This document shows positions 37,699 to 63,848 of a stretch of 64,000 nt of DNA, piece after piece. The DNA is from an uncultured Flavobacteriaceae bacterium (GTDB lineage: Bacteria > Bacteroidota > Bacteroidia > AKYH767-A > OLB10). Numbering within the stretch: position 1 is the stretch's first letter; each line of letters begins with the position of its first letter. The notes under the pieces are model-generated. The model searched no databases. It was not told the origin of the DNA and worked only from the letters and a program-made list of their open reading frames with translations. The DNA lies in the NCBI GenBank assembly GCA_964432885.1, contig CAYSPG010000012.1:25220-89219 (forward strand), read 5' to 3'. The translations under genes and the position numbers were made by a program.

Positions 37699-40449
37699 TT
37701 ATCTGACTTCTAACTTTAGTTTCTCATTTGATGAGGCACTGCTAAGCGACACTATGTAAACACCTTTTGATAAGGCATGAATATTAATTTCGTGTTGGTT
37801 GGCTCCGCGTTTTGAAATTCCACCTTCGGCAATTACTTGTTTCCCTAATATATCAAACACTTTAATCGAATAGGATTCATCGCTATCGGTATTAAACATT
37901 AATGCAACTTTTTCTTTTGCCGGATTTGGATACAAAATTGTTTTAACATGTTCGTCCTCTGCAATCTCATTGTTTCCGTTACGGCATGGCATAACCACAG
38001 CCAGAACACTTGAACCGCTACTGCCACAGGCATTGCTACCAGAACATGTAACATTTCCATTTTGCGCTCCCATATTAACTGTTATTGAAGTAGTACCCTG
38101 ACCTGATACAATAGACGAGCCTGAAGGAACTATCCAGTTATCAATGGTACCGGCAACAGGATTAGCCGGAATAGTAAACACAACACCCGCCTGATTTTTG
38201 CAAAACGAAGATGGGTTAGCAGTAATAGCTCCTGGTGTTTGAGGAAATCCTTTTAACGGTATGCAACGAGGAGCACTGGTGCGACAATAATTTACACCCG
38301 ATACACACAAGTTTGAATTACCGGGATTACCAAAAGAAATATCAACTGTATTGGTTCCTGCACCGGCACCAATGGTTGCGTTGGGAGGAAGTGTCCAGGA
38401 ATAACTAGTTGCACTGTTTGACGTGCCTGCTGCATAAGTAAGAGTGGTATTGCATGCACTATAAATTTGACCTGTAAGTGTAGTCGGAATGCCAGGCATA
38501 TCAATAGATGTTGCAAAAATTTTATTAGTAGATGTATAACAATGGGTTGATGCATTCACCAGAATATTTCCTCCATTATAGGTAGGACCAAAATCAATCA
38601 CTACTGAATTTGTTCCCTGCCCACTTGCAATAGTTGCTCCGGCAGGCGGTGTCCAGTTATATGTACTTGCACCGGCTACATTTTGTGTTGCATAGGTTAT
38701 GTTTGGCAGGTTATTACAAACCTTTGCAGGTCCCGTTACTATGGCTGGTGTCGAAACTGAATAGCGAGTCCAAACATGGCTTGAGTCATCACTAGTTCCA
38801 CATTCGTTAAGTGCGCGAACGTTTATGTAATATCCTGTATTGTTCATTGAGCTAAAGTCCACAAGCACAACCTCACTGCCTTGTCCGCTGGCAATTGATA
38901 CTCCATCACTACCAAACCAGTCGTAACCAAATGCATCAGGCTGTAATGGAATACTGTACTGGACTCCCGTTGTTCCGGGACAGGTTACCTGCGAACCACC
39001 TGTTATTGCACCCGGAGTTACAGGCTTGTATTTAATGGTAAGAGGTGCCACAGAAGAAACTTTATTAGGATTGCAAGAGTTTGTAACTTTTACATCATAA
39101 TTTCCTGCATAAGAAATATCTGCTTGATTAATGGTAAGTGTATTTGTGGTTGCTCCCGAAACATTAGGTCCATCAACCAAATTAACACCGTTTAATCTCC
39201 ATTGGTAATTTAAATTTAATCCTATTGCAGAAACGGTAAACATTGCAGATGTACTATCACATACTTCAGTAGCAGTTGGCTGCACCGGAATGTCAATTAC
39301 TTTGGTTAACTGCAAACAGCGAGGCAGGCCTGTGCCACAAGCATTGGTAGATGTTACACACACACGTCCTGTATTATAATTTTGAAGAAAGTTAATATCT
39401 ACCTGTGGTGTATTTTGACCTGCAATAATTGATGCTGGCGCAAGTGTTGTCCAATTGTATCCGGTAACACCCGGTAATACCGGAACTGAATATTGTGCCA
39501 CGCCATTGCAAAGTCCAGCAGCAATGCCTGTAATGGAAGCTGGCGCATTAGGAGCCGAGCGAATCTGCAAAACTTTTTCTTTGCTAACTCCACATCCGTT
39601 GTTTGCTTTAACGCCAACATTACCTACTGTAAAGCCGGCAGGCATGGTTATAGTTACCGTATTGGTTCCCTGCCCGGTAATAGTAGCTCCGATAGGTGCC
39701 GACCATGTATAAGATGTTACGTTAGCTACCTGCTGTACACTAAACACTCCGCTTTGTCCGGCACAAACTGTAGTCGGACCTGAAATAGTTCCAGGTGTAA
39801 GTGGTTTATCAACATAAATGGTTGCGAGCTGGCTCGGACTGGTTCCGCATCCGTTTGATACATTTACACTCAACGTTCCATTGTTTACAAATCCAGCGTT
39901 AAATTGAACCGTAATTTGATTGGTACCCTGCCCGCTTAAAATGCTTGCGCCTGTTGGAACAGACCATGTAAAAATTCGTTGAGCAATATTAGTTACACTA
40001 TATGTATTGGTGGTTCCGGGACAGGCAAAAAAGTTTCCGCTTATACTTGAGGCACCACCAGGCACACCGGCCGAAGTAATGGTTTTGGTTAGCGGCCCGG
40101 TTGTAAAACAGGCATTGCTGGCATAAACGCTTATATTTCCTGGTGGCACAAAGAAAGGGCCGAAATTAACCGTAACTGTTGTTGAAGATGAAGTATATGG
40201 ATTTTGGCCATTAATATTACATCCCGAAGGCAGATACCAAGTGTAATCGGTGGCATTAGTTACGGCAGTAACGGTATATGTGTTTGATAAACCCGGACAA
40301 CTTTGTAAAGGACCCGTAACGCCACCAATACTACCAAGTTGCGGGCATTGTGCATTAATAAAATTAACTGACAATGCAAGAGCAACAGCTAGTGAAACCC
40401 GGTCAAAAGTTGTTTTTACAAAACGCAATAATTGTACATTCTTTTTCAT
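37699..40449 (-). CDS. Large secreted protein of repeated PKD/Ig-like modules with a T9SS type A C-terminal sorting domain
   Basis: 916 aa; signal peptide; about 8 repeats containing P.GA.I.SGQGTN.V; C-terminus ILYPNPAKEKV...GVYIVSL matches the Por_Secre_tail. Confidence 0.8.
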   Translation of the reverse strand: MKKNVQLLRFVKTTFDRVSLAVALALSVNFINAQCPQLGSIGGVTGPLQSCPGLSNTYTVTAVTNATDYTWYLPSGCNINGQNPYTSSSTTVTVNFGPFFVPPGNISVYASNACFTTGPLTKTITSAGVPGGASSISGNFFACPGTTNTYSVTNIAQRIFTWSVPTGASILSGQGTNQITVQFNAGFVNNGTLSVNVSNGCGTSPSQLATIYVDKPLTPGTISGPTTVCAGQSGVFSVQQVANVTSYTWSAPIGATITGQGTNTVTITMPAGFTVGNVGVKANNGCGVSKEKVLQIRSAPNAPASITGIAAGLCNGVAQYSVPVLPGVTGYNWTTLAPASIIAGQNTPQVDINFLQNYNTGRVCVTSTNACGTGLPRCLQLTKVIDIPVQPTATEVCDSTSAMFTVSAIGLNLNYQWRLNGVNLVDGPNVSGATTNTLTINQADISYAGNYDVKVTNSCNPNKVSSVAPLTIKYKPVTPGAITGGSQVTCPGTTGVQYSIPLQPDAFGYDWFGSDGVSIASGQGSEVVLVDFSSMNNTGYYINVRALNECGTSDDSSHVWTRYSVSTPAIVTGPAKVCNNLPNITYATQNVAGASTYNWTPPAGATIASGQGTNSVVIDFGPTYNGGNILVNASTHCYTSTNKIFATSIDMPGIPTTLTGQIYSACNTTLTYAAGTSNSATSYSWTLPPNATIGAGAGTNTVDISFGNPGNSNLCVSGVNYCRTSAPRCIPLKGFPQTPGAITANPSSFCKNQAGVVFTIPANPVAGTIDNWIVPSGSSIVSGQGTTSITVNMGAQNGNVTCSGSNACGSSGSSVLAVVMPCRNGNNEIAEDEHVKTILYPNPAKEKVALMFNTDSDESYSIKVFDILGKQVIAEGGISKRGANQHEINIHALSKGVYIVSLSSASSNEKLKLEVR

Positions 40450-50658: not shown

Positions 50659-52500
50659 TCACCTCTTAATCACCTTCTCTGTCAACACCTGCCCCGACTT
50701 ACTTCCCGTAACTTTTAAAAAATAAATTCCTGCATTAAGTTTATTCAGCGCAAACGAAAACTCGTTTTCTCCTTTTACCAAACTACCGTTATACAATTTA
50801 TGAACAAGCTGATTTTGGGCATTGTACAATTCAAAACACAAAACCTGGTTTTGAGGATTGGTAAATGCTACCGTAATATTTTCGTCAGCAGGATTTGGAA
50901 AAACATTAGCTGACTCACTTTTAGCAGGCAATATATTAATATCTGTAATTCCATTACCCGATAGTTCAGCAATCCATGTGCGTGTGGTGTGGTTGCCAAA
51001 TGAGTATGTACCGCTTACCCAAACTATACCGGGTTGATTATATTTTACCTGGCAACCGGAATAATCACCCCACCGTTCGGTACCGGATATCATACTAATG
51101 TAGGAAACTCCGCTACGTACATTTAGTATAGGCGAGTATTGAGTGTATCCATCAAACAGCACAGCTCCCATGCCCGGATTAACAGTGGCCGATGATTTTA
51201 AAAAACCAATAATGGAACTGTCGTTGGTTAGGTGGTTGCTTACCGGTGCAAGGTTGGCATAAGCTAAATCCATTGCCGTGTCGGCAAGGGTGGATGCTGT
51301 AACAGTATAAGTTGGCCCCACAGGATGAATCATCCCATGATATATTCCTACATTTCCTGTTGCTGTATCGGTAGTGTTACCCACAAATTGAATATCTAAT
51401 CCGTTGCTAAATGCGCCAAGTATGCGCGCATCGTTGGTAGCAAGTTTGTCGGTAAAAGGCTGGTCGGCATCTACCGGCATGCGGTATTGATGGTTTGATT
51501 GCAAAGCCTGCACGGCAACCACCTGGCCGGGGGCAAAGGCCGTGTCGGATACAGTAACTAAAAAAATAGTGTCGTTGCCGGTGCTAAAATTTCGGTTCGA
51601 AAGAAATGTCATGCCCGGTGAGTTTAATTGCCACCCTGCCCGCACGGGGCATAGGTTACGAAGTGGTGCTCCGTTATGTAATATGTTATTGTGCAATTGC
51701 GCATTTAGCGTGTTGCCATTGTAGCCGTCATACTTATTCATTTGCCAAATAAGGCTTTCGTTAAAACCGGTTTGCCAACTGCTGTCGTTATACAAAAGGT
51801 TTACGGTAATAAACAAATCATTTCCTGATAAAGAAAGCATTGGAAAATCTGTCCACAAACTATTGTTAAGCGGATTGCCGGGCAGCGCGTAAAAATTCCA
51901 AGCACCATTGGTAGTATCGCTTTGAGAAAAACCAATAATTACATTGCTGGTTGAATCGGTAAATCCATTAAGGCAAACAAAAACAAAACGATTGCTAACG
52001 TGGTCGTAAATTATTTTAGGATCAAATTCCTCCTGCTGCAAACCAAGTACCGATGTGATGGTGTGCAGATTGTAAGTACCAAAAATTTGATTGGTGATAA
52101 TGTTTTTTGTCCAAATGGTGGTGTTGGTTACCGAGCACACACGGTCGTTATTCCCAATGGCCATGTCATTATCATTTGGCACGTAGCCATTAAAAGCATT
52201 GCCAATAAAATTGCGAAGCATTGCAGGAGGATTAATTACATTTAACTTTCGCTCGTCATAAGCTGCGTATTTTTTTGGATAACGATTAGCAATTTCTTTT
52301 TTCGCTTTTTCTTTTTCAATATCATCAGCACCATGGTCGGGTTTTGGCAGATGGCGGTTTTTTACCTGCGGGTTAAAATCGTTTTGTTCATCGCTAAGCA
52401 CAAGCGTTGCTTTTTTGTGTATCACAAATTTTTGTGATGATTGGCAAAATGCCTGTGAAATACACAAGCAAATAATTAGCGGAAGCGAAATGTGTTTCAT
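50659..52500 (-). CDS. Hypothetical secreted protein with a T9SS type A C-terminal sorting domain
   Basis: Signal peptide MKHISLPLIICLCISQAFCQ; C-terminus NVFPNPADENITV...GIYFLKV matches the Por_Secre_tail. Confidence 0.75.
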   Translation of the reverse strand: MKHISLPLIICLCISQAFCQSSQKFVIHKKATLVLSDEQNDFNPQVKNRHLPKPDHGADDIEKEKAKKEIANRYPKKYAAYDERKLNVINPPAMLRNFIGNAFNGYVPNDNDMAIGNNDRVCSVTNTTIWTKNIITNQIFGTYNLHTITSVLGLQQEEFDPKIIYDHVSNRFVFVCLNGFTDSTSNVIIGFSQSDTTNGAWNFYALPGNPLNNSLWTDFPMLSLSGNDLFITVNLLYNDSSWQTGFNESLIWQMNKYDGYNGNTLNAQLHNNILHNGAPLRNLCPVRAGWQLNSPGMTFLSNRNFSTGNDTIFLVTVSDTAFAPGQVVAVQALQSNHQYRMPVDADQPFTDKLATNDARILGAFSNGLDIQFVGNTTDTATGNVGIYHGMIHPVGPTYTVTASTLADTAMDLAYANLAPVSNHLTNDSSIIGFLKSSATVNPGMGAVLFDGYTQYSPILNVRSGVSYISMISGTERWGDYSGCQVKYNQPGIVWVSGTYSFGNHTTRTWIAELSGNGITDINILPAKSESANVFPNPADENITVAFTNPQNQVLCFELYNAQNQLVHKLYNGSLVKGENEFSFALNKLNAGIYFLKVTGSKSGQVLTEKVIKR

Positions 52501-52543
52501 ACAAATGCAGTTTAGTGGTTAGAGTAATTATTAACTAAAAAAG

Positions 52544-52935
52544 TGGAGCCGGTGGGAGTTGAACCCACGTCCAGACACGGAATCAATGTGCTTTCTTCAT
52601 GCTTAGCATTTGCTTAATTGTAGGGATAATGTGTGGCGAAATGCTTACCGTCATTATCCTTAGCTCTTTTATCTTATTGCTGTGGCAGAGCAACACAGCA
52701 ACCAGCCTGTATTTTCGATGCCTCTGAACTTACCTCTACAAGCGTAAGGTAAGAGAGACAGCTTGTTCGGGTACTATCGTACCGGAATTAAGCTAACCCA
52801 CATAGTGGATTAGGCAGCAAGCGCGTAGTCGTTTTCGCCATTTAGACGAGTGAGAATCGGGATTAACGGGTGGTATTCACAGCACCCGGCATGCTTACAC
52901 ACCTATTGCACATGCTGTCGATTCCTTTCGGCCCC
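52544..52935 (-). ncRNA. ssrA: tmRNA (SsrA), encoding tag peptide GENDYALAA
   Basis: 5' end GGGGCCGAAAGGAATCGACAGCA; 3' tRNA-like end GGACGTGGGTTCAACTCCCACCGGCTCCA (T-arm plus acceptor); internal tag ORF GGC GAA AAC GAC TAC GCG CTT GCT GCC TAA on the minus strand at 52810-52839. Confidence 0.85.
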
Positions 52936-53197: not shown

Positions 53198-54340
53198 ATG
53201 AGTCAGGAAGTTTACATAACCAAAGCGGCCAAATTTTTACCCAATAAACCCATTGCCAATGATGAAATGGAATTGTTTTTGGGGCTGATAAATGGCAAAC
53301 CATCAAAATCAAGGGGAATAGTATTGCGGAACAATGGTATTAAGTGCCGCTATTATGCCATGGATAAAAATGGCAATGCAACGCATACCAACTCTCAAAT
53401 GGCTGCACTTGCAGTAAAGCAACTTTTTAATAATAACGCAAAAGAAATCAGTTCAATAGATTTATTATCCTGCGGCACTTCTTCTCCCGACCAGTTAATG
53501 CCATCACATGGTGTAATGGTGCATGGCTGGTTGCCCGAAACAAATGAAATTGAAGTAGTATCTCCAAGTGGAAATTGCTGCTCGGGTATGCATGCGTTAA
53601 AGTATGCATGGATGAGTGTAAAACTTGGTCAGGCAAAAAATGCTGTAGTAACAGGGTCGGAACGTTTATCGCGCATAATGCGTGCCGATAGTTTTGAAGA
53701 AGAGGCATCAAAACTGTCGTTGCTTGATGAAAACCCATACATATCATTTGATAAAGAATTTTTGCGCTGGATGCTTAGCGATGGCGCAGCAGCAGTTAAA
53801 CTAAACAATGCCAAAAGCGAAAGTGGTACAAGTTTGCGCATTGACGCTATCGAAGGCTTTTCGTTTGCTCATAAAACCGAACCTTGTATGTATCAGGCAA
53901 GTGATAAAGTAAATGGTGAGCTAAAAGGATATTCGGACTTTTCGCAAAAAGAGATTATGTCAAAATCGGTTTTCAGCATTAAGCAGGATGTAAAACTACT
54001 AAGCGAAAACATTGTAACTCTTGGAATACCTGCACTTAAAAAAGTGCTTGAAAACAACCATGTTAAACCAACAGAGATTGATTACTTTATTCCTCACCTG
54101 TCAAGCGAATTTTTTAGAAATAAAATTGCCGAACAGATGGAAGCTGCAAACATTATGATACCCAAAGAAAAATGGTTTACCAACTTATCTGAGATAGGCA
54201 ATGTAGGCTCAGCATCGGTGTATATGATGCTTGAAGAATTATTAAACACCGGCAACTTAAAAACCGGTGAAAAAATATTTCTTCTTGTTCCAGAAAGTGC
54301 ACGGTTTAGTTATGTTTTTGCACTACTTACGGTTGCGTAA
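53198..54340 (+). CDS. FabH-like beta-ketoacyl-ACP synthase III family enzyme (DarB-like condensing enzyme)
   Basis: 380 aa; thiolase fold with Cys (GNCCSGMHAL), His (IPHLSSEF) and Asn (IGNVGSASV) catalytic positions; longer than a canonical FabH. Confidence 0.75.
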   Translation: MSQEVYITKAAKFLPNKPIANDEMELFLGLINGKPSKSRGIVLRNNGIKCRYYAMDKNGNATHTNSQMAALAVKQLFNNNAKEISSIDLLSCGTSSPDQLMPSHGVMVHGWLPETNEIEVVSPSGNCCSGMHALKYAWMSVKLGQAKNAVVTGSERLSRIMRADSFEEEASKLSLLDENPYISFDKEFLRWMLSDGAAAVKLNNAKSESGTSLRIDAIEGFSFAHKTEPCMYQASDKVNGELKGYSDFSQKEIMSKSVFSIKQDVKLLSENIVTLGIPALKKVLENNHVKPTEIDYFIPHLSSEFFRNKIAEQMEAANIMIPKEKWFTNLSEIGNVGSASVYMMLEELLNTGNLKTGEKIFLLVPESARFSYVFALLTVA

Positions 54341-54365
54341 GTGAATAAAATAAGCATATAGCGTT

Positions 54366-54773
54366 TTGAAAAAAAAAGATTTACCCCAGGACCCAAGTGC
54401 GCTTGACAATGTTACACGCGATGTTGTGTATGTTACCGATGATAAAGGCAATTACACTGCCGAACTTAGCCGGGGGTGGGAAGTAAAAGCCACAGCACTT
54501 ACTATTGCCTGGCAGGATATTGAACAACGGATAAAAGAAGCAAAACTAAAAGTTGACAGTGGCCAGGCCAGCCCGGTTTTATTTTTTATGGAATTAAAAC
54601 TGATGGATATACCTACACTTGCCGGTTACACAGGCCTTTGGCAATGGCAGATAAAACGACACATTAAGCCTTCGGTTTTTAAAACCCTTTCGGCAAAAAA
54701 AATTGCAAAGTATGCCGAAGTATTTGAAGTAAGCGTTGATGACTTTAAAAACTGTATCGTACATGCAGGTTAA
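54366..54773 (+). CDS. Hypothetical 135-aa protein with a possible degenerate HTH-like C-terminus
   Basis: Overlaps the next gene by 11 nt (translational coupling); the C-terminal LAGYTGLWQWQIKRHIKP...LSAKKIAKYAEVFEVSVDDF resembles an XRE-type HTH only loosely. Confidence 0.4.
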   Translation: MKKKDLPQDPSALDNVTRDVVYVTDDKGNYTAELSRGWEVKATALTIAWQDIEQRIKEAKLKVDSGQASPVLFFMELKLMDIPTLAGYTGLWQWQIKRHIKPSVFKTLSAKKIAKYAEVFEVSVDDFKNCIVHAG

Positions 54774-55776
54774 CTTTAAACATACACAAGCAGCTCATTG
54801 CGAAAATGGTGTAACAGTAAATCTTTTGCGTCATATTGGAGTGGAAAAAATTACCGAGCCACTGGCATTTGGCATTGGGTCAGGATTATTTTTTATTTAT
54901 ATACCGCTTTTAAAAGTAAACAATGGCCCTGCGTTTTCGTACCGAACCATGCCCGGTCTTATTTTTAAACGCACGTGCAATTCACTTGGCATTCCGGTAA
55001 CGCGAAAAAAATTTTCATCACCTGAAAAAGCACAGCGCGCACTTGACGAATGCCTTAGTAACAACCAGCCTGCCGGTTGCCAGGTAGGTGTTTACTTCCT
55101 CCCCTATTTTCCAAAAGAATACCGTTTTCATTTTAACGCCCATAACCTTGTTGTATTTGGCAAAGAAGGCGACAATTACCTGGTAAGCGACCCCGTAATG
55201 GAAACCACAAATGTACTTTCAGCTTATGAGTTAGAGCGTGTGCGCTTTGCCAAAGGCCCGCTTGCACCCCGAGGCCAATTGTATTATCCCCAATCGAAAA
55301 CAGAAGTAACCGATGATATGATGCGCAAAGCCATAGTGCAGGGCATTAAGAGAAATGTGCGCGATATGCTTCGCATACCAGGCCCGGTGGCCGGTGTTAG
55401 CGGCATTAGATATACGGCAAAGAAAATTAGCCGCTGGCGCGATAAACTCGGCATAAAAACTGCCGGGCTTTATCTTGCACAACTGGTTCGCATGCAAGAG
55501 GAGATTGGAACAGGCGGTGGTGGATTCAGGTTTATTTATGCTGCATTTTTACAGCAGGCACATGCGTACTTTAAAAACGATGAGTTAATTCGCATTTCTG
55601 AACAGTTTACCAAATCAGGCGACCTATGGCGCTCATCAGCAGTTCAGGCTGCCGGAATTTTTAAAGGCCGAATTACTGCTCAGTCTGACTTTGACGACAT
55701 GGCCGGTTACCTTTATAAAATAGCCGATATTGAAAAAGAAGCTTTTGTTTCGTTATCAAAAATAAAATGGAACTAA
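54763..55776 (+). CDS. BtrH_N-domain (papain-like fold) protein, candidate DarA-type partner of the KAS III enzyme
   Basis: N-terminal HTQAAHCENGVTVNLL with a conserved Cys; about 337 aa; start taken at MQVNFKH. Confidence 0.55.
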   Translation: MQVNFKHTQAAHCENGVTVNLLRHIGVEKITEPLAFGIGSGLFFIYIPLLKVNNGPAFSYRTMPGLIFKRTCNSLGIPVTRKKFSSPEKAQRALDECLSNNQPAGCQVGVYFLPYFPKEYRFHFNAHNLVVFGKEGDNYLVSDPVMETTNVLSAYELERVRFAKGPLAPRGQLYYPQSKTEVTDDMMRKAIVQGIKRNVRDMLRIPGPVAGVSGIRYTAKKISRWRDKLGIKTAGLYLAQLVRMQEEIGTGGGGFRFIYAAFLQQAHAYFKNDELIRISEQFTKSGDLWRSSAVQAAGIFKGRITAQSDFDDMAGYLYKIADIEKEAFVSLSKIKWN

Positions 55777-56517
55777 ATGGATGCCGCCATTTCTGTTTCA
55801 AGCCTTCATTTTAAGTATCCCGGGCAAAAAAAAAATTGCCTTCAAAACATCAATCTTACCATTTTAAAAGGCGAGCGGTTTGGACTATTTGGGCCTAACG
55901 GGGCAGGTAAAACCACACTGATGAGCATTATGACAGGCCTGATAAAACCTGCAACCGGTGCTGCTCATATTTTTGGTTCCAAAATTTTTGGAAGCAATTC
56001 AATAAAAAAAACATTTGGTTATGTACCTCAGGATTTCGCATTCTATCCTGAGCTAACTCCTGTTGAAAATTTGCAGTTTTTTGGTGCCTGGGCCGGCTTG
56101 GATAACACAACCACTAAAAAGCGAACAGATGAATTGCTTGAGGTTTTGGGCCTTACCGATTTTAGAAACAAACAGGTAAAAACTTTTTCGGGAGGCATGA
56201 AAAGAAGAATAAATATTGCAATAAGTGCTATACATAATCCCCAAATTTTATTTCTTGACGAGCCTACTGTTGGTGTGGATGTTCAAACACGTGCAGCAAT
56301 AATTGATTATTTAAAACAGCTAAATGCCTGCGGAACTACTCTTGTTTACACATCACATCACTTGCAGGAAGCGCAACAACTTTGCAATCATATTGCATTA
56401 ATTGATGATGGAAAAATAATAGTTGACGGAAACCTTGAAAAAATATTGTCTGAGCATAACCAAAAACGATTGGAAGATTTGTTTTTGCAACTTACCGGAC
56501 ATGCTTACCGCGATTAA
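55777..56517 (+). CDS. ABC transporter ATP-binding protein (ABC-2 type exporter)
   Basis: Walker A GPNGAGKTT, signature FSGGMKRRINIA, Walker B LFLDEPTVGVD. Confidence 0.9.
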   Translation: MDAAISVSSLHFKYPGQKKNCLQNINLTILKGERFGLFGPNGAGKTTLMSIMTGLIKPATGAAHIFGSKIFGSNSIKKTFGYVPQDFAFYPELTPVENLQFFGAWAGLDNTTTKKRTDELLEVLGLTDFRNKQVKTFSGGMKRRINIAISAIHNPQILFLDEPTVGVDVQTRAAIIDYLKQLNACGTTLVYTSHHLQEAQQLCNHIALIDDGKIIVDGNLEKILSEHNQKRLEDLFLQLTGHAYRD

Positions 56518-56524
56518 ATAATTT

Positions 56525-57802
56525 ATGACAAAATTATTTTCAGCTTTGCTTAAAGAATTCAGGTTGCTTGTTCGCGACAGGGTTGGGCTTGCGCTTATGT
56601 TTATTATGCCGGTAATTTTGGTAATTGTTATTACCAGCGTTCAAAACAGCACGTTTGAGATGGTAAACGACAATAAGATAAAATTGCTTGTTTCCAATAA
56701 TGATTCAGGAAAAATTTCAAAACAATTTATTGGGGGCATAGCCAAACTTGGAATGTTTGAAGTAATTACAGGCAAAAGCAATAAAACTTCTGACGGCATT
56801 TCGGAGCTAATGAAAATGCATGACGCGCTTGTTGGATTGGTGCTTCCAGAAAATTTTTCAATTCAATTGCAGCAAAAAGCCAAACACAGTACTGCAAAAG
56901 CCCTCACCGAATTTGGAATGACAGGTGATACTGGCATTCCACACCCGGCAGTAATATCACCTGAACTGTATTTTCATCCGGTGCTTCAAAAATCGTACAG
57001 ATACTCTATCAATGGAGCTTTGCAAAGTGTAATGCAGGTAACCGAAAACAAACTGATGATAGAGCAATTGTACAAAACCATTAACGATAAAGAAATGCCT
57101 GATGGTTTTGAAAATGATTTGATGCAAAACAAAATTGTGTTTACCGAAAAATTTGCAACCGTAAGTGGAAACAAAACAATACCTAATGCAACACAGCATA
57201 ACATACCAGCATGGACCGTGTTTGCCATGTTTTTTATTGTAATAAGTTTGGGCGGCAATGTGGTTAAAGAAAAACTGAGTGGTAGTTTTATCAGGCTTCG
57301 CACAATGCCTACGAGTTATTTGCTCAATTTGGCTGCCAAACAAATTTTATATGTTAATGTAGTGCTGCTTCAGGTAGTGGTGATATTTGGTATTGGGGCT
57401 TTGGTATTTCCAAAATTAGGATTGCCCGTTCTTAATATACCTACCGATATTTTTTTACTGGTGCTTGTAACAATAATTTGTGGCTGGTGTGCCATAAGTT
57501 ATGCCATGTGCATTGGTGTGTTTGCTAATACACAAGAGCAGGCCAATGGATTTGGAGCCGTATCTGTTGTTTTGTTTGCTGCCATAGGCGGTGTGTTTGT
57601 GCCTGCCTTTGCCATGCCTCAATCCTTTAAAATTATCATGAACATATCTCCCCTTCACTGGTGCGTTGAATCCTATTATGATTTATTTTTAACGGGAGGC
57701 AGTTTTAAAAACATTGCTGGCAATGTTTTACCTTTGCTTGCTGCAACAGCAATTTTTCAGTTGCTTATATTTATTGGTTTAAAACGAAAGAATTTAATTT
57801 AA
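56525..57802 (+). CDS. ABC-2 family transporter permease
   Basis: 425 aa; N-terminal TM helix, large extracytoplasmic loop, C-terminal 5-TM ABC-2 domain. Confidence 0.8.
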   Translation: MTKLFSALLKEFRLLVRDRVGLALMFIMPVILVIVITSVQNSTFEMVNDNKIKLLVSNNDSGKISKQFIGGIAKLGMFEVITGKSNKTSDGISELMKMHDALVGLVLPENFSIQLQQKAKHSTAKALTEFGMTGDTGIPHPAVISPELYFHPVLQKSYRYSINGALQSVMQVTENKLMIEQLYKTINDKEMPDGFENDLMQNKIVFTEKFATVSGNKTIPNATQHNIPAWTVFAMFFIVISLGGNVVKEKLSGSFIRLRTMPTSYLLNLAAKQILYVNVVLLQVVVIFGIGALVFPKLGLPVLNIPTDIFLLVLVTIICGWCAISYAMCIGVFANTQEQANGFGAVSVVLFAAIGGVFVPAFAMPQSFKIIMNISPLHWCVESYYDLFLTGGSFKNIAGNVLPLLAATAIFQLLIFIGLKRKNLI

Positions 57803-58074
57803 TGGAAAGAGAACAACTTACGCTCGAATTAAAACAACACATTATTAAATACCTTAATCTGCTTGAAAAAACTCCTGCAGACATTGCAAACGACCAGCCC
57901 CTTTTTGGTGATGGACTTGGATTAGATTCCATTGACTCCATTGAGTTGGTTGTAATGATGGAACGCGAGTACGGTATTAAAATTAACGATCCAAAAGAAG
58001 GCCGAAAAATTTTTGTAACCATCAATACCATTGTTGATTTTATTTTGCAGCATCAAAACAAAATTACTTCGTAA
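57802..58074 (+). CDS. Acyl carrier protein
   Basis: 90 aa; phosphopantetheine attachment motif GLDSIDSIELV. Confidence 0.8.
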   Translation: MEREQLTLELKQHIIKYLNLLEKTPADIANDQPLFGDGLGLDSIDSIELVVMMEREYGIKINDPKEGRKIFVTINTIVDFILQHQNKITS

Positions 58075-58077
58075 AAA

Positions 58078-59265
58078 GTGAGCCGCATTGTAGTAACAGG
58101 ATTGGGTGTAATAAGCCCACTTGGAAACTCAGTAAGCGAAAATCACCGGGCACTTACCCAAAGCACCTGCGGCATTTCATCACTCGAGCTTTTTAAAACA
58201 AAATATGCAGCCACACTTCGCTTTGGTGAAATTAAAACCGAAAACGCTAAACTAAAAGAAGACCTTGCGGCTAATGAAGAAAGCGTAACGCGAACAAGTT
58301 TGCTTGCATTGCACGCTTTTAATCAGGCTGTTTCGTCAAGCAAACTAATGCCCTCACAGGTTTCATCACCTGATTGTGCACTTGTGGTTGCAAGTACCGT
58401 TGGCGGCATGTGTTTAACCGATGAGTTGTATAGCGACTCAAACAGCCATTCAAAAGGCTCTTCTTTTCTTTCATCATACGATTGCGCTTCTGCTGCCATG
58501 TATCTTCAGCACCGGTATCAAATCAAAGGTGTGGTTAATACCATTAACACCGCTTGTTCTTCGGGTGCCAATGCAATTATGTTTGGCGCACGCCTGATAA
58601 AAAACGGATTTGCAAAACGGGCAATTGTTGGTGGAACCGACAGCCTTGCAAAATTCACCATCAATGGTTTTAACTCCCTTAACATTCTTGCTCCACAAAA
58701 TTGCAGGCCTTTTGATAAGGAGAGAAACGGATTAAATCTGGGCGAAGGCGCGGGTTTTATAGTTCTTGAAAGAGAAGAAGATTGTGAAAACAAAAAAATA
58801 TATGCTTCGCTTACCGGCTATGCCAATACAAACGATGCATTTCACCCATCATCCATTTCAGAAAATGGCGAAGGGCCTTTTCTTGCTATGAGCAAAGCGC
58901 TTTTGCTTGCCGGCCTTGAGCCTGAAAAAATCAACTACATTAATACACATGGCACCGGCACAGAAAACAATGATGAAACAGAAAGTAAAGCGATGATTCG
59001 TATTTTTAAAATCGTTCCTCCTTTTGCTTCTTCAAAATCAAAAATAGGGCACACACTTGGTGCTGCTTCAGCTATAGAATCGGTGTTTAGCATTCTTGCG
59101 CTTTCAAATAGTGAATTGTACCCAAGTTTAAATTTTGTTAATCCTATCGAATCCACTTTGCTTTGTCCGGTTACTAACTATCAAAAAATGAACATACAAA
59201 ACGTTATGTGCAACTCGTTTGGTTTTGGTGGAAATTGCAGTTCGCTTATTTTTTCAAAAAGCTAA
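58078..59265 (+). CDS. Beta-ketoacyl-ACP synthase (FabF/FabB-like KAS I/II), GTG start
   Basis: VVTGLGVISPLGN N-terminus, active-site Cys (TACSSGANAI), His motifs (NTHGTGT, KSKIGHTLGAAS). Confidence 0.85.
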   Translation: MSRIVVTGLGVISPLGNSVSENHRALTQSTCGISSLELFKTKYAATLRFGEIKTENAKLKEDLAANEESVTRTSLLALHAFNQAVSSSKLMPSQVSSPDCALVVASTVGGMCLTDELYSDSNSHSKGSSFLSSYDCASAAMYLQHRYQIKGVVNTINTACSSGANAIMFGARLIKNGFAKRAIVGGTDSLAKFTINGFNSLNILAPQNCRPFDKERNGLNLGEGAGFIVLEREEDCENKKIYASLTGYANTNDAFHPSSISENGEGPFLAMSKALLLAGLEPEKINYINTHGTGTENNDETESKAMIRIFKIVPPFASSKSKIGHTLGAASAIESVFSILALSNSELYPSLNFVNPIESTLLCPVTNYQKMNIQNVMCNSFGFGGNCSSLIFSKS

Positions 59266-59293: not shown

Positions 59294-59572
59294 TTAATCC
59301 TCAATGCTTGCCGTAAGGCCACGCTCAATAAGTGCCTGGCACATTGGGCGCAAATATTTTACAGTTCCGTTTTTTACATCACACCTGCCTTTGTTATGTA
59401 CAATTACCGAACACTGCTCGGCTTGTTCCCGCTCATGGCTGCATATGTCAATAAGCGAATCAATAACATAATCAAAAGAGTTTACGTCATCGTTGTACAA
59501 AATCAGGTTGCTTTCTTTGGCTGCCTTTTTGTGTGAAGCAGGACTTTGAGATACAGATGGCTTGCGGCTCAT
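59294..59572 (-). CDS. clpS: ATP-dependent Clp protease adaptor ClpS
   Basis: Conserved core YKVILYNDDVNSFDYVIDSL...AEQCSVIVHNKG; start taken at MSRKPS. Confidence 0.85.
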   Translation of the reverse strand: MSRKPSVSQSPASHKKAAKESNLILYNDDVNSFDYVIDSLIDICSHEREQAEQCSVIVHNKGRCDVKNGTVKYLRPMCQALIERGLTASIED

Positions 59573-59653: not shown

Positions 59654-62600
59654 TTAAGGTTTTAAACCGTTAGATGAACTTTTGCCCTCAAGCAAAACAT
59701 TTACCTGAGCATCGGGCTTGTTCTCAAAAATTTTAAGATTACGTCTTATACTAACCGCATATCGCTCTTTATAGTCAGATGTTTTTGCACGTTTTAATTT
59801 AGCAATTACCGCATCGTCTTCAGAAGGTTGGCTTGCTGTTTTTAACTCAGTTTCAGTTTCTGCAATTGTTGTGGGTTGGCTAATTGCAACAGGCTGTTTG
59901 GGAAGTTCCTGTGTCTTTGGCACTGAAGTAATTTTTTCTTCTACAATATTTTTAGTAAGCGTTGCAACTGAAATATTCTTTTGTTGTGACGATTTAACGA
60001 CAGTTTGTTTTGCAGGCTTGCTGTCAACCTTGGTTGATTCGATAGTTGTTGCAAGTTTTATTTCTTCAGTTGGCTTGCGCTCGGTAACTGCTGGTGCTGG
60101 TTCAACTACTCCTTTGGTAATTTCTTTTACAGTAATATTTTTTTGCTGATCGGCTTTAACTGCATTTTGCTTTACGGGTTTGCTGTTAACCTTAACTGGT
60201 TCAATGGCTGATGCAAGTTTTATTTCTTCAATAGGTTTACGTTCAACAACTGTAGATGCTGGTTCGATTACTCTCTTTGTAATTTCGTTTACAGCAATAT
60301 TTTTTTGTTGCTCAGCCTTAACCGCATTTTGTTTTGCAGGCTTGCTGTCAACCTGGATTGGCTCAATGGCTGTTGCAAGTTTCATTTCATTTAAACTCTT
60401 TGCCTCGGTTAGTCCCTTCTGTTCTGATACTTCCTTCTTTCTTTGTGCTTCAACATAACCACTAAACTCTGCTTCTTTTAATTCGTTAGATTGTGGTTCC
60501 ATTTTTTTTGTTTCTGGTGTGGTTTCAGCAGTCGCTTCACTTATGTTGTTTGTAATTTGTTTTACTGAAATATTTTTTTGCTGATCGGCTTTAACTGCAG
60601 TTTGTTTTACAGCCTTGCTTTCAACTTTTGTAGGCTCAATGGTTGTTGCAAATTTTATTTCTTCAACTGGTTTGCGTTCTTCTGCAACGGGCACAGTTGG
60701 TTTTGCAACTTCGGCAACTGGCTCAACCACACCTTTTGTAATTTCTTTTACAGTAATATTTTTTTGTTGATCAGCTTTAACTGCAGTTTGTTTTACAGCC
60801 TTGCTTTCAACTTTTGTAGGCTCAATGGTTGTTGCAAATTTTATTTCTTCAACTGGTTTGCGTTCTTCTGCAACGGGCACAGTTGGTTTTGCAACTTCGG
60901 CAACTGGCTCAACCACACCTTTTGTAATTTCTTTTACAGTAATATTTTTTTGTTGATCAGCTTTAACTGCAGTTTGTTTTACAGCCTTGCTTTCAACTTT
61001 TGTAGGCTCAATGGTTGTTGCAAATTTTATTTCTTCAACTGGTTTGTGTTCTTCTGCAACGGGCTCAGTTGGTTTTGCAACTTCGGCAACAGGTTCAACC
61101 ACACCTTTGGTAATTTCTTTTGCAACTGGCGTTTCAGCAATTTTATTTTCGTCACCCTTTGTTTGACTAGTTTTTTCAACTTTTGATTTTTCAGGTTTAG
61201 CAATGTTGGTTTTGCTTTGCTCTTTTTGCAAATCTTCAAAATTCAATTCGTCCAAACTAAACGATTGGGCAAGTTGCTGATTTTGTTTAGTAATCGAATC
61301 CTGCTTTTGCTTTAAAGCAATCTCATCCTTTTTATCCTTCTGGTTAAGTTTATCTTTAGCAATTTGTTCCATTTCAGCATCCTGCTTTGGTTTTAGCTGC
61401 TGCGCGTATTTTGTGCGCTCTGCCTTCCAATTGCACAATTGCTTTATTTTAGTTTCAGCAACTGTGTAAGCAATTACCGGAGTTAACTTAATACCCATAT
61501 CCTCAACATATCCTGCTCTTTTAATTTCGGCTTGCTTTTGTTCAACAGGTTTTTGTTCAGCAGGGTTTTTTGTGCTTACATGAGTATTGGCTGCAATTGG
61601 TTTTGTTGCTTGTTGCAAAGATGATGGTGCAGAAGGTGAACTGTTAGATGCTGCAGTTTTATTATTGGTGGCTTGTGCTGCATTTTGTTTTGCAGCTTTT
61701 GATGCTGCCAGCATTTGTTCAATCGTTTGCGGTTGATTGCTTGGTTTATCGGGCGCATTAGGATACTTTATGTTGATAGCAACAGTTTCTTTACCCGAAT
61801 TATTTTTCGAAAGAATTACTTCCTGTTCAACTGCAGTATATCCGTCTTCTATAAAAAATTCGCCCATTAGAAATGTAAAGCCCGGCTTATCAATCTTGCA
61901 AGCGTATTTTTTTGCCTTAGGCAATTTTATTTCGTAACCACCAGTTTTTGTATCTACCTGTATTTGCGACAGCAGCTTATACGATTCGCCATCATAAAAC
62001 ATAAGTGTTGCCTGTAAATCTTCGGGACGGTATGTGTTTGAAAAATTTCCTTTGATATAAATTTTACCCTCATCCTTAGTTATCAAACTAATTTTAAATT
62101 TCTGTACTTTTCCTAAATCACAATCACGATTGCTTAAAAATTTGGCTGATTTATTTCCACTATCTGGCAAAAACAAATAATCATCATACGGGCTGTTTAC
62201 GGGCATTCCTAAGTTTTCGGGCACACCCCAGTTACTTGTTGTTTCATTCCATGTACATTTAAACACATCATAACCGCCCATGCTCTGCTCATTGTTTGCA
62301 CTAAAATAAAGTACGGTACCATTTTGAGCTGTGGTAGGATAAATTTCATCGGCAATTGTATTTACAGGCGATTGCAACCTTACAGGTTTATCATATTTTT
62401 CGGCACCTTTTTTATTTGCATAAAAAATATCGGCATGGTACGAACCATCCGTTCCTTTGCTTGAATAATAAACACGGTTTCCATTTGCTTCTAAAAATAA
62501 AAACTGTGGTTCGTTTAATTTTTTATCATAATTGGATTGAAAAGCCTCTGTTATTTTTAGCAATTTTCCATTTTCAGAAAAATAATTTCCGGCCACGTTT

Positions 62601-63094
62601 ACCAGCTCTTCATTTGCCTTTTCATTAATTGGGTATTTATCTCCAAGTTGCTTTATTCTTAATCCTGATTTGCACTGTTGGATGCGTGTGTCCACTTTCC
62701 ATTCGGTAAGCAATTCCTGCCCTGTATATTTTTTAAAAATCTGATACGACCGCATGCTTTGATCGAAATCATACGTAAGCTGATAAGCCAATCCTAAATA
62801 ATAATATACATCCTTGGGTGTGTTTGCACTCATGGAGGCTTTTTCAAGATGCTTAATGGCATCAACAACATTTACTCCTGAAAGCACGCGGCTTACACCA
62901 TACAAGTATTGATACCGAACATCGGCCGGATGATTGCTTACCAATTGTGCATACTGCCATGATGCCTGCCGATATTGTTTTGTTTTAAAATAATTATCGG
63001 CACTAATGGCAAGTTCCTTGTCCTGTGCATGCAAACATGCAATGCTCATTACAAAAAGTGCCAACAGTATATAAAATTTATTTGCTTTAGTCAT
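59654..63094 (-). CDS. Large exported protein: N-terminal TPR plus PD40/TolB-like region (as in Bacteroidota OmpA-family proteins), with the C-terminal half a Lys/Glu/Pro-rich tandem 62-aa repeat array and no recognisable OmpA domain
   Basis: Signal peptide MTKANKFYILLALFVMSIACLHAQ; TPR-like helices at residues ~30-130; WD/PD40-like region at ~200-330; repeats ITKGVVEPVAEVAKPTVPVAEERKPVEEIKFATTIEPTKVESKAVKQTAVKADQQKNITVKE x3 near-identical plus about 4 diverged copies. Confidence 0.7.
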   Translation of the reverse strand: MTKANKFYILLALFVMSIACLHAQDKELAISADNYFKTKQYRQASWQYAQLVSNHPADVRYQYLYGVSRVLSGVNVVDAIKHLEKASMSANTPKDVYYYLGLAYQLTYDFDQSMRSYQIFKKYTGQELLTEWKVDTRIQQCKSGLRIKQLGDKYPINEKANEELVNVAGNYFSENGKLLKITEAFQSNYDKKLNEPQFLFLEANGNRVYYSSKGTDGSYHADIFYANKKGAEKYDKPVRLQSPVNTIADEIYPTTAQNGTVLYFSANNEQSMGGYDVFKCTWNETTSNWGVPENLGMPVNSPYDDYLFLPDSGNKSAKFLSNRDCDLGKVQKFKISLITKDEGKIYIKGNFSNTYRPEDLQATLMFYDGESYKLLSQIQVDTKTGGYEIKLPKAKKYACKIDKPGFTFLMGEFFIEDGYTAVEQEVILSKNNSGKETVAINIKYPNAPDKPSNQPQTIEQMLAASKAAKQNAAQATNNKTAASNSSPSAPSSLQQATKPIAANTHVSTKNPAEQKPVEQKQAEIKRAGYVEDMGIKLTPVIAYTVAETKIKQLCNWKAERTKYAQQLKPKQDAEMEQIAKDKLNQKDKKDEIALKQKQDSITKQNQQLAQSFSLDELNFEDLQKEQSKTNIAKPEKSKVEKTSQTKGDENKIAETPVAKEITKGVVEPVAEVAKPTEPVAEEHKPVEEIKFATTIEPTKVESKAVKQTAVKADQQKNITVKEITKGVVEPVAEVAKPTVPVAEERKPVEEIKFATTIEPTKVESKAVKQTAVKADQQKNITVKEITKGVVEPVAEVAKPTVPVAEERKPVEEIKFATTIEPTKVESKAVKQTAVKADQQKNISVKQITNNISEATAETTPETKKMEPQSNELKEAEFSGYVEAQRKKEVSEQKGLTEAKSLNEMKLATAIEPIQVDSKPAKQNAVKAEQQKNIAVNEITKRVIEPASTVVERKPIEEIKLASAIEPVKVNSKPVKQNAVKADQQKNITVKEITKGVVEPAPAVTERKPTEEIKLATTIESTKVDSKPAKQTVVKSSQQKNISVATLTKNIVEEKITSVPKTQELPKQPVAISQPTTIAETETELKTASQPSEDDAVIAKLKRAKTSDYKERYAVSIRRNLKIFENKPDAQVNVLLEGKSSSNGLKP
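59900..61150. repeat. Intragenic tandem repeat array; 186-bp unit with 3 near-identical copies at ~60583-61140 and diverged ~160-186-bp copies at ~59900-60580
   Basis: The DNA-level identity of three consecutive 186-bp units is also visible as a three-fold repeated antisense ORF (60578..61186 in the track). Confidence 0.85.
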
Positions 63095-63203: not shown

Positions 63204-63848
63204 TTATTCCTCTTTTTTGCGATTGCCAAAAAGGTTGGCTTTGCTTTCGGAACCACGCAGTAAGCGTTCAATGTTACGCTGGTGGGTAACCAATACAAGA
63301 ATGCAAACTGCCATAGAAAAAACGTTCATGCTTCTAACGGTTTCGTTAAAAATAAGCATGACAATAAAAGGAAATGAAATGGCGGCTGTCATTGAAGCAA
63401 GCGAAACATAATTTGTTGTAATTAAAATTACGGTAAAAACGCCAAGGCAGATTAAGGCAGCCGGAGGGTTTACTCCCCACAAAATACCCAACAAAGTGGC
63501 CACCCCTTTACCACCCCTGAAGCCTGCAAAAACCGGAAAAATATGACCAAGCAATGCAGCTACACCAAGCACAAGTTTAAAATTAATAAACTGTTGTGTG
63601 GCGGGCATATAGTCGCCAAAAAAAGTTGCCAATTGCACGGCAAGCCAGCCTTTGGCTATATCTAAAATCAACACAGGAATTCCTGCCTTAGGGCCAAGAA
63701 CCCTAAACGTGTTGGTGGCACCGGCATTACCGCTGCCGTACTCGCGCACATCAATGCCCCAAAATATTTTTCCAACCCACACAGCCGATGGCAACGAGCC
63801 TAATAGATAGGCAACAAAAAAAAGTAAAATGTTTTCTGCGTTAATCAT
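63204..63848 (-). CDS. plsY: Glycerol-3-phosphate acyltransferase PlsY
   Basis: 214 aa, 5 TM helices, conserved GSGNAGATN and FKGGKGVAT motifs. Confidence 0.9.
   Translation of the reverse strand: MINAENILLFFVAYLLGSLPSAVWVGKIFWGIDVREYGSGNAGATNTFRVLGPKAGIPVLILDIAKGWLAVQLATFFGDYMPATQQFINFKLVLGVAALLGHIFPVFAGFRGGKGVATLLGILWGVNPPAALICLGVFTVILITTNYVSLASMTAAISFPFIVMLIFNETVRSMNVFSMAVCILVLVTHQRNIERLLRGSESKANLFGNRKKEE

Follow-up and report, generated by a model that had tools for sequence, protein, structure and literature searches.

The window examined here is a 64,000-nt stretch of DNA from an uncultured Flavobacteriaceae bacterium (GenBank assembly GCA_964432885.1, contig CAYSPG010000012.1, positions 25,220 to 89,219). 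On its minus strand lies a genuine open reading frame (ORF) of 1146 codons plus a stop codon (59654..63094), which starts with ATG and keeps an intact frame across 3.4 kb. The gene is flanked upstream by plsY (G3P_acyltransf; 63204..63848, minus) and downstream by clpS (Pfam ClpS; 59294..59572, minus), the order being rluD-like, plsY, the 1146-amino-acid gene, clpS; a scan for promoters and terminators returned no more sites than in shuffled sequence. The product, hereafter the query, has two dissimilar parts: a head (amino acids 1-444), in which a signal peptide precedes a TPR domain, PD40 blades and a β-sandwich, and a C-terminal part composed of a low-complexity linker, a helical module, an array of tandem repeats and a conserved tail. 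Head and genomic position tie the query to a group of Bacteroidota envelope proteins; the C-terminal part, we suggest, is a clade-specific replacement for the peptidoglycan-binding end of its counterparts.

The head opens with a signal peptide (amino acids 1-23; 63026..63094, minus), read from the sequence, in which the predicted signal peptidase I cut, LHA|QD, is of the Bacteroidetes Q-rule type (PMC5837995). The N-terminus reads ..SIAC20LHA|Q24 DKE; could the cysteine instead mark a lipoprotein? Among 65 aligned sequences, [AGS]-Q follows the hydrophobic N-terminus in 57, namely 56 homologues and the query, and Cys20 is not conserved among the homologues, so that signal peptidase I cleavage is favoured over lipoprotein processing; export to the periplasm as a non-lipoprotein would be the likely route. 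Next come the TPR domain (amino acids ~24-152; 62639..63025, minus), the PD40 (TolB-like) β-blade region (~153-340; 62075..62638, minus) with an invariant GG.D motif at G273 G274 D276, and the β-sandwich (~341-444; 61763..62074, minus), which occupies the position of the carboxypeptidase-regulatory-like domain (CRD) of PorE and contains the AlphaFold2 strands at 344-443. The AlphaFold2 model of the head, built from a 65-sequence alignment, has a predicted local distance difference test score (pLDDT) of 92.4 and displays TPR helices, β blades and a β-sandwich. Sequence profiles are less emphatic: Pfam TPR_6 and PD40 match the head only below their cut-offs. Searched alone, the head matches NCBIfam CHU_0125_OmpA (NF053607) at amino acids 202-432 (E 2.7e-20, 72.4 bits, cut-off 620), covering positions 282-510 of the 639 in the model, and T9SS_PorE (NF052230) at 202-328 (E 6.4e-17, 61.1 bits, cut-off 600); with the full protein the former scores 58.6 bits and the latter is not listed at E ≤ 1 in NCBIfam. 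Judged by these profile matches, the head shows homology to the CHU_0125 and PorE heads, yet by cut-off it is a member of neither family. Foldseek of the head model against PDB gave partial TPR and β-propeller matches and no whole-head template. The initial annotation had likened this region to the TPR/PD40 type of OmpA-family proteins, and the NCBIfam matches and the AlphaFold2 model bear this out.

Which of the proteins with such heads are the true counterparts of the query? The top scorers of the whole-protein search, Bacteroidia proteins of ~980 amino acids (P0002-P0024), contain two tandem TPR+PD40 heads, each after a β-sandwich-like region; they stop abruptly at ..DD.Y[FY].E and likewise carry no anchoring domain. 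Among the matches with a single head, the best are very long (1300-2000 amino acids), and the complete ones end in three SPOR-like domains; P0026 (E 1e-53) and P0031 (E 2e-48) are 32% identical to the query over the head. OmpA-type proteins come further down the match list, at E values of at least 1e-23. Gene order points the same way. clpS adjoins the counterpart gene in the relatives L005, L006, L007, L008, L011 and L019, and plsY is likewise placed in L005 and L019: L005 reads plsY, a 166-amino-acid ORF, P0026 (2006 amino acids, three SPOR-like domains), clpS; in L006, P0031 (1717 amino acids) lies directly upstream of clpS; and L019 reads rluD-like, plsY, a 222-amino-acid protein, clpS. 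Because the query shares this slot with P0026 and P0031, the two long proteins for which a contig position was available, it is the positional counterpart of SPOR-type, not OmpA-type, proteins. The initial annotation had the repeats standing in place of an OmpA domain; this part of it does not hold, since the closest single-head relatives and the plsY-X-clpS counterparts end in one to three SPOR-like domains and the OmpA types are more distant. An offset-identity scan found unrelated tandem repeats in the stalks of P0026, P0028, P0030 and P0064, with periods among several relatives of 12, 15/30, 26/52 and 140 amino acids; as several relatives have their own stalk repeats, a repeat-prone stalk is a family trait. 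The 166-amino-acid ORF between plsY and P0026 (L005 1749-2249) has a lipoprotein-like start (..LSLGAC) and weak Lipocalin_3/LptM-like Pfam hints.

The query itself has no recognizable anchor of this or any other type. Pfam (whole protein at E ≤ 1, tail at E ≤ 10) returned no OmpA_C (PF00691), as the initial annotation had said of the C-terminus, and neither SPOR nor the C-terminal type IX secretion system (T9SS) domains, Por_Secre_tail (PF18962) and CHU_C (PF13585), the last two of which were both detected in other proteins of the window. As many head homologues have SPOR-like ends, a SPOR-like hidden Markov model (HMM) was built from these homologues' own domains. It finds one to three copies in 54 of 120 head homologues from the seed phmmer search, gives no match to the query at E ≤ 10 with filters off (--max), and no SPOR-like domain turned up in the six frames of the 64-kb window (tblastn, hmmsearch). 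A cryptic OmpA or SPOR domain in the tail had been named as the observation that would overturn the initial annotation; the searches with Pfam and, for SPOR, by HMM, six frames and hhalign did not find one. The likeness of YAVSI in the tail to the SPOR β-1 motif Y.VQ.G had suggested such a cryptic SPOR; this candidate was rejected on the negative HMM and six-frame results and on hhalign, which aligned the profile of the tail and its orthologs with the SPOR-like profile at a probability of 0.25%.

What takes the place of the missing anchor? The head is followed by a linker rich in A, Q, P, K and S (amino acids 445-526; 61517..61762, minus), inside which lies a possible relic of the repeat unit. 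Then comes a conserved module (amino acids ~527-625; 61220..61516, minus), for which a helix of 73 residues (539-611) is predicted and which carries the motif SLDELNFEDLQK, its general pattern being ..PDAEM.Q....KQ..I......L..L...DLQK. At the other end of the array, the C-terminal tail (amino acids 1044-1146; 59657..59965, minus) closes with 56 residues (59657-59824) that are conserved as ..IAKLKRA...DYKERYAVSIRRNLKIFENKPDAQ...GLKP. The part as a whole is strongly biased: amino acids 445-1146 include 14 aromatic residues in 702, versus 57 in the 421-residue head, and consist of K15 E12 A11 V9 T9 Q8 P7 %. In the single-sequence AlphaFold2 model the long helix at 539-611 has pLDDT 64-89, every unit core shows one and the same weak strand pattern, and a weak helix covers 1108-1125. 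The hydrophobic moment of this last helix is 0.47 (protein mean 0.20, standard deviation 0.10) and its net charge is +3, with similar values in orthologs; it could be a cationic amphipathic helix, which for now is only a lead.

Both module and tail recur in other species. Over 101 amino acids (query 532-624) the module shares 41.6% identity with the 222-amino-acid secreted protein of L019 (BLASTP E 5e-16), and it is 28% identical to the 251-amino-acid proteins of L011 and L014; its alignment has 18 invariant columns. The tail is 45-65% identical to partial orthologs in L007, L008/L009, L010 and L018 (45% over query 1069-1146 in L007, 65% over 1099-1146 in L018), and in four aligned sequences, from three species and the query, it retains 17 invariant columns with the motif KLK.A....Y...YAVS.R...K.FEN...G.KP at the very C-terminus. 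On these alignments, the C-terminal half is more than repeats: module and tail are conserved across species. The L008 product (119 amino acids) is 44% identical to query 1016-1146 (E 1e-27), and its first 37 residues match the query's unit cores at 56-62% amino acid and 78% nucleotide identity; by this comparison the repeat unit is older than the divergence of at least two species and is not a strain-level novelty. The small slot proteins carry the same ends in a different setting: L019, in which PlsY is 82% identical, encodes in the slot the 222-residue secreted protein (L019 3402-4070) with the module and VSIRR near its end, and L011-L015 encode upstream of clpS a 251-residue protein (9141-9896) that is 28% identical to query 519-700 and ends ..NERIPVSIRRE... 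Pfam and NCBIfam gave nothing credible for them, and these 222-251-residue proteins appear to be an undescribed small secreted family. The query shows both marks of its clade's slot proteins, namely the plsY/clpS position and the module combined with a C-terminal VSIRR motif. Read against its relatives, it is a mosaic: a SPOR-type head joined to the module and end of the small proteins, with the array between them. It may have arisen by fusion, or the small proteins may have arisen by head loss.

The array comprises six clear units, amino acids 659-1043, that is, 385 residues or 34% of the protein. Tandem Repeats Finder detects 3.1 copies of a 186-bp period (60549-61121, 97% matches, score 1076) and 2.4 copies of a 162-bp period (59993-60388, 79% matches), and a gapless repeat finder merges six copies into one family, with a weak seventh at 61680-61723 (70% identity over 44 nt). 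In order along the protein, three near-identical 62-residue, 186-bp units (amino acids 659-844; 60563..61120, minus) come first: unit 1 (659-720; 60935-61120), unit 2 (721-782; 60749-60934) and unit 3 (783-844; 60563-60748), all on the minus strand. They are followed by unit 4, a degenerate copy of 91 residues (845-935; 60290..60562, minus; 97.6 bits with the unit HMM), and by the older units 5 and 6 of 54 residues, or 162 bp, each (936-989 and 990-1043; 59966..60289, minus). All six score 91-115 bits with the unit HMM, and 21 of the 62 alignment columns are invariant. The possible relic in the linker (amino acids 457-479; 61658-61726) scores 11.2 bits on the isolated segment, a score reached by one in 1000 segment shuffles. 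The count of about seven copies in the initial annotation is thus fair, as six clear units and one weak relic; its description of the C-terminal half as a repeat array is right in that the array is present and too broad in that the array makes up only 34% of the protein, next to the linker, the helical module and a 103-residue tail. The array has a polyampholyte composition (K16 E14 V14 A11 T10 I7 P7 %, five of its 385 residues being aromatic). An antisense ORF of 202 amino acids with F/N/C/L-rich repeats on the plus strand (60578-61186) is not a gene but a by-product of the array, arising because the repeat unit lacks stop codons in that frame.

A young tandem repeat is in itself ordinary; here the variants also record a history. 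Units 1-3 differ by 4-9 nt per 186 nt, which places these head-to-tail, in-frame copies at 95% nucleotide identity or higher, beyond what chance would give. Compared with unit 2, unit 1 is changed only at nt 11, 26, 29, 55 and 73, and unit 3 only at nt 161, 167, 180 and 182; unit 2, which has no private change, is therefore identical to unit 3 over nt 0-160 and to unit 1 over nt 74-185. Such a unit is what a single event of unequal crossover or slippage, located between nt 74 and 160, is expected to produce on an array of two units. Selection was gauged from nonsynonymous and synonymous substitutions per site (dN and dS; Nei-Gojobori) on the 49-residue unit cores, with ~32 synonymous sites per comparison. 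Units 5 and 6 compared with units 1-3 and with each other give dS 0.70-1.25, dN 0.11-0.17 and dN/dS 0.11-0.20; unit 4 compared with the others gives dS 0.59-0.88, dN 0.23-0.29 and dN/dS 0.30-0.48. The low dN/dS between the older units implies that, ever since the old duplications, purifying selection has acted on the peptide. Provided the assembly is correct, the divergences show at least three age tiers: old units at dS ~0.7-1.2, a 62-residue pair at dS ~0.2, and one extra unit, the result of a single unequal crossover or slippage, that has not mutated since it was made. The recent expansion or homogenization first read from the sequence can accordingly be kept for the three 186-bp units, which are very young, and not for the older ones, in which dN/dS is 0.11-0.20.

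Why did a protein with so many partial relatives look like an orphan? Over its 1146 residues it is identical to one NCBI record, a singleton cluster from a 93,663-nt contig; besides this record, a word-indexed search with the whole protein returned only head matches, the leading ones at no more than 35% identity, and an exact look-up of the complete protein in the contig index gave no record. Exhaustive phmmer with amino acids 659-1146 against 1.84 billion representative proteins gave zero matches and did not return the query itself, a GTDB genome scan gave only one distant Cytophagales head match (L001), and two JGI metagenome scans, one with the protein and one with the unit alignment, gave no confirmed relative. 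The lineage is not isolated, since UvrC from the window has relatives at 77% identity. The closest relatives, judged by ClpS identity (L007 78%, L016-L018 76%, L008-L010 71%), are on short contigs, each of which starts within the gene upstream of clpS. Fragments of the query gene itself on Logan contigs (678 and 169 amino acids) were not returned by the whole-protein search; products cut at contig ends are evidently not in the searched collections. Near-identical repeats always cut genes at contig ends, and so such genes look unique although relatives exist. The orphan status is largely an artefact.

How might the protein work? A layout of head, long stalk and conserved end suggests a tether or spacer in the periplasm, with the head probably contacting proteins at the outer membrane. 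More distant Bacteroidia have, in the same slot, this head followed by a long stalk of low complexity and three SPOR-like domains of the peptidoglycan-binding type; in the clade of the query, this SPOR end is exchanged for the linker, a helical module of ~100 residues, K/E/V/A/T-rich units of 54-91 residues and a cationic tail of 56 residues. The protein would then be a periplasmic tether or spacer in which stalk length changes by gain or loss of units, and the cationic tail may stand in for SPOR or OmpA as the second attachment point. Taken jointly, that the ORF encodes a real Sec-exported, non-lipoprotein, periplasmic cell-envelope protein of a T9SS-bearing Bacteroidota bacterium and acts as a tether with a repeat-built stalk is a picture to which we give even chances of being right; any one target of the tail deserves much less credence. 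A bolder version, in which the module, the unit and the KLK..YAVSIRRN.KIFEN tail form a new envelope-anchoring system that took over from the SPOR-like domains of a PorE/CHU_0125-type tether in one clade of Bacteroidia and is also functional by itself as a small secreted product beside clpS, and in which the unit number is an adjustable ruler across the periplasm, is quite unlikely to hold in full.

Several observations weigh against the tether. The head scores no more than 61-72 bits where the family cut-offs are 600-620 bits. In PorE the domain that binds peptidoglycan is essential (PMC12773672), and a protein that has none may act quite differently. Module, unit and tail have no Pfam, NCBIfam or PDB-sequence match (the best hit of the unit profile among PDB sequences, E 0.06, is noise), and no structural match gives a function; the single-sequence AlphaFold2 model of amino acids 432-1146 is poor (pLDDT 43.7). 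L019, fairly close to the query, has a 222-residue slot protein that includes neither head nor array, so the head and the tail part may act independently. The purifying selection on the units was estimated from ~32 synonymous sites in each comparison, and the join across the array comes from the metagenome assembly alone.

This last point is also an explanation in its own right: the three near-identical units may be an assembly outcome, the true array having two units, or four or more, and at the extreme the flanks of two genes may have been misjoined. An exact direct repeat of 273 nt at an offset of 186 (60588-60860 = 60774-61046; 60588..61046) accounts for the only repeated 31-mers in the 64-kb window, besides one 31-mer common to 60134-60164 and 60569-60599. 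Units 1-3 have an 87-nt core in common (60588-60674, 60774-60860 and 60960-61046). As unit 2 has no private variant, two-unit, three-unit and longer arrays contain identical k-mers (an array of unit 1 and unit 3 has the same k-mers as units 1, 2 and 3), so that only reads longer than ~275 nt, read pairs or coverage depth can count units. The window matches two sequencing runs: Logan assemblies (k=31) of SRR14932608, which is among the metagenome-derived datasets listed in PMC13403791, and of SRR14932609 are 100% identical to it. Their contigs end at 61061 and 60163, at or within ~15 nt of repeated 31-mers; because each 31-mer is held once in Logan contigs (PMC12424806), they stop at the repeats, confirming both flanks and saying nothing about the unit count. 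All ortholog contigs, those from MEGAHIT and JGI assemblies included, break at or before the array and start inside or just after the gene. The caution in the initial annotation that the true copy number may differ was thus justified, with a 273-nt exact repeat at which independent k=31 assemblies stop. Yet with 9 differences between units 1 and 3, and with units 4-6 diverged by 60-80%, an array of at least five units is robust; one otherwise unseen unit family lies on both flanks in a single continuous frame; L008, another species, has the same order of unit, tail and clpS, which makes a chimeric join unlikely; and the assembler may have drawn on read pairs or coverage depth. We consider a miscounted array somewhat unlikely, if a serious contender, and it is compatible with the tether. 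The array is real; the number three is unverified from a short-read metagenome assembly.

Other explanations change what the C-terminal part is for. The 54-62-residue unit could be a new small folded domain that binds, for example, peptidoglycan or a protein partner, making the array a multivalent substitute for SPOR or OmpA rather than a spacer. The low dN/dS between old units, the 21 invariant columns and the retention of the unit in another species fit such a domain, as do the weak strand pattern repeated in each core, an IKFATTI segment with a β-type hydrophobic moment, and the one to three tandem SPOR-like domains at the equivalent end of relatives; pLDDT is, however, ~40-50 across the units, aromatic residues are scarce in a polyampholyte composition, the units have no Pfam or PDB-sequence match, and the slot proteins of L019 and L011 keep the module and the VSIRR core and have no unit, which is then dispensable for the role of the conserved ends. 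We consider a binding unit unlikely. That the gene is a decaying remnant, a SPOR-type protein that has lost its peptidoglycan-binding end and in which the C-terminal half is drifting junk expanding by slippage, would explain why no anchoring domain is recognized, why no full-length relative of this half appears in protein databases and why two JGI scans were negative. It is improbable given an intact frame over 3.4 kb, unit cores under purifying selection, a module and tail 42-65% conserved in several species, and an orphan look that largely reflects products cut at contig ends. Variable surface adhesins and antigens typically have near-identical in-frame repeats, which counts in favour of a surface-exposed protein of variable copy number resembling Gram-positive identical-repeat surface proteins, and the organism has a T9SS with many T9SS cargo proteins. 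The query, however, has no Por_Secre_tail or CHU_C at the Pfam thresholds given above, its signal peptide looks like the A|Q kind cut by signal peptidase I and unlike a lipoprotein signal that carries an export motif, and the homologous head of PorE is periplasmic (PMC5053529); we regard an adhesin as very improbable. The periplasmic tether remains the reading that we prefer.

The T9SS genes of the window, from which we conclude that the organism has this system, comprise a PorU-like C25 peptidase, an SprB-repeat protein with CHU_C and three Por_Secre_tail proteins. The first of these, a PorU-like T9SS sortase of 1281 amino acids (Peptidase_C25, E 4e-105; 21142-24987, plus), is followed by an ORF of 406 amino acids (25090-26310, plus) that could be PorV. 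The second, of 1543 amino acids (171-4802, minus), has 10 SprB repeats, PKD domains and a CHU_C type-B T9SS signal and is an adhesin of the gliding-motility type; the Por_Secre_tail proteins lie at 32741-35401 (plus), 37699-40449 (minus) and 50659-52500 (minus), one of them with eight PKD_6 domains. A full-length tmRNA gene occupies 52541-52935 (minus; Rfam RF00023, 150 bits). Downstream of clpS in the direction of the query gene, a cluster on the plus strand (53198-59265) encodes ACP_syn_III, a 135-amino-acid ORF, BtrH_N/DUF4872, an ABC ATPase, an ABC-2 permease, an acyl carrier protein (ACP) and a ketoacyl synthase (KAS). L008 has this whole downstream cluster (KAS, ACP, ABC transporter) in common with the window, conserved gene for gene; it probably encodes a lipid or polyketide-like pathway together with a dedicated exporter.

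What does one such gene teach? TPR-PD40 envelope proteins, among them PorE and CHU_0125, are thought to tie outer-membrane complexes to peptidoglycan; one head that occurs in one slot with either a SPOR-like or an unrelated, conserved, repeat-bearing end suggests that the anchoring end is exchangeable and that a new attachment motif exists. The module and VSIRR motif, found together as a free small secreted protein, offer a simple system for binding tests. Genes with near-identical repeats are cut in short-read assemblies and look like orphans, and their copy number in metagenome-assembled genomes should not be interpreted. The most useful outcomes are the SPOR-type plsY-X-clpS family context, the conserved tail motif and a copy number that is unreadable from the assembly.

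Among well-known envelope proteins, domain II of TolA, the Pro-rich spacer of TonB and the linkers of SPOR proteins of the FtsN/DedD type each place a charged, low-aromatic, extended region between two functional ends, and the streptococcal alpha C/Rib family has identical tandem units in numbers that recombination can change. To these the query is similar by analogy only: it has no sequence relationship with them, and none of them has its head. The small slot proteins (222-251 residues) share with it the module (41.6% and 28% identity), the VSIRR core, the slot and the type of signal peptide; they differ in having no TPR/PD40 head and no array and in their tail beyond the VSIRR core. Homology of the head leads to two characterized proteins. 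CHU_0125 of Cytophaga hutchinsonii (NF053607), also a Bacteroidota envelope protein with a TPR and PD40 head, consists of TPR, PD40 and OmpA_C, and its loss impairs outer-membrane integrity (PMC5891637); the query is 490 amino acids longer, with an unrelated C-terminal half and no OmpA_C. PorE/PG1058 (NF052230; PMC7192894), a component of the T9SS, which the organism of the query also has, is a periplasmic, outer-membrane-associated protein made of TPR, β-propeller, CRD and OmpA_C (PMC5053529), in which the WD40 domain contacts PorP and OmpA_C is essential (PMC12773672). The first three of these four domains appear in the same order in the query model and the fourth is absent; PorE, moreover, is a lipoprotein, whereas the query probably has an A|Q signal peptidase I site. 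Closest of all are the SPOR-type Bacteroidia proteins (P0026, P0031), which have the same TPR-PD40-sandwich head, slot and A|Q signal peptide and a long K/A/E/T/N-rich stalk, often with tandem repeats; in contrast to the query, they end in SPOR-like domains and have neither the module at 527-625, nor the 54-62-residue unit, nor the VSIRR tail. The query is thus of a known kind, a Bacteroidota TPR-PD40 envelope protein, and what is new in it is the exchanged, clade-specific C-terminal part.

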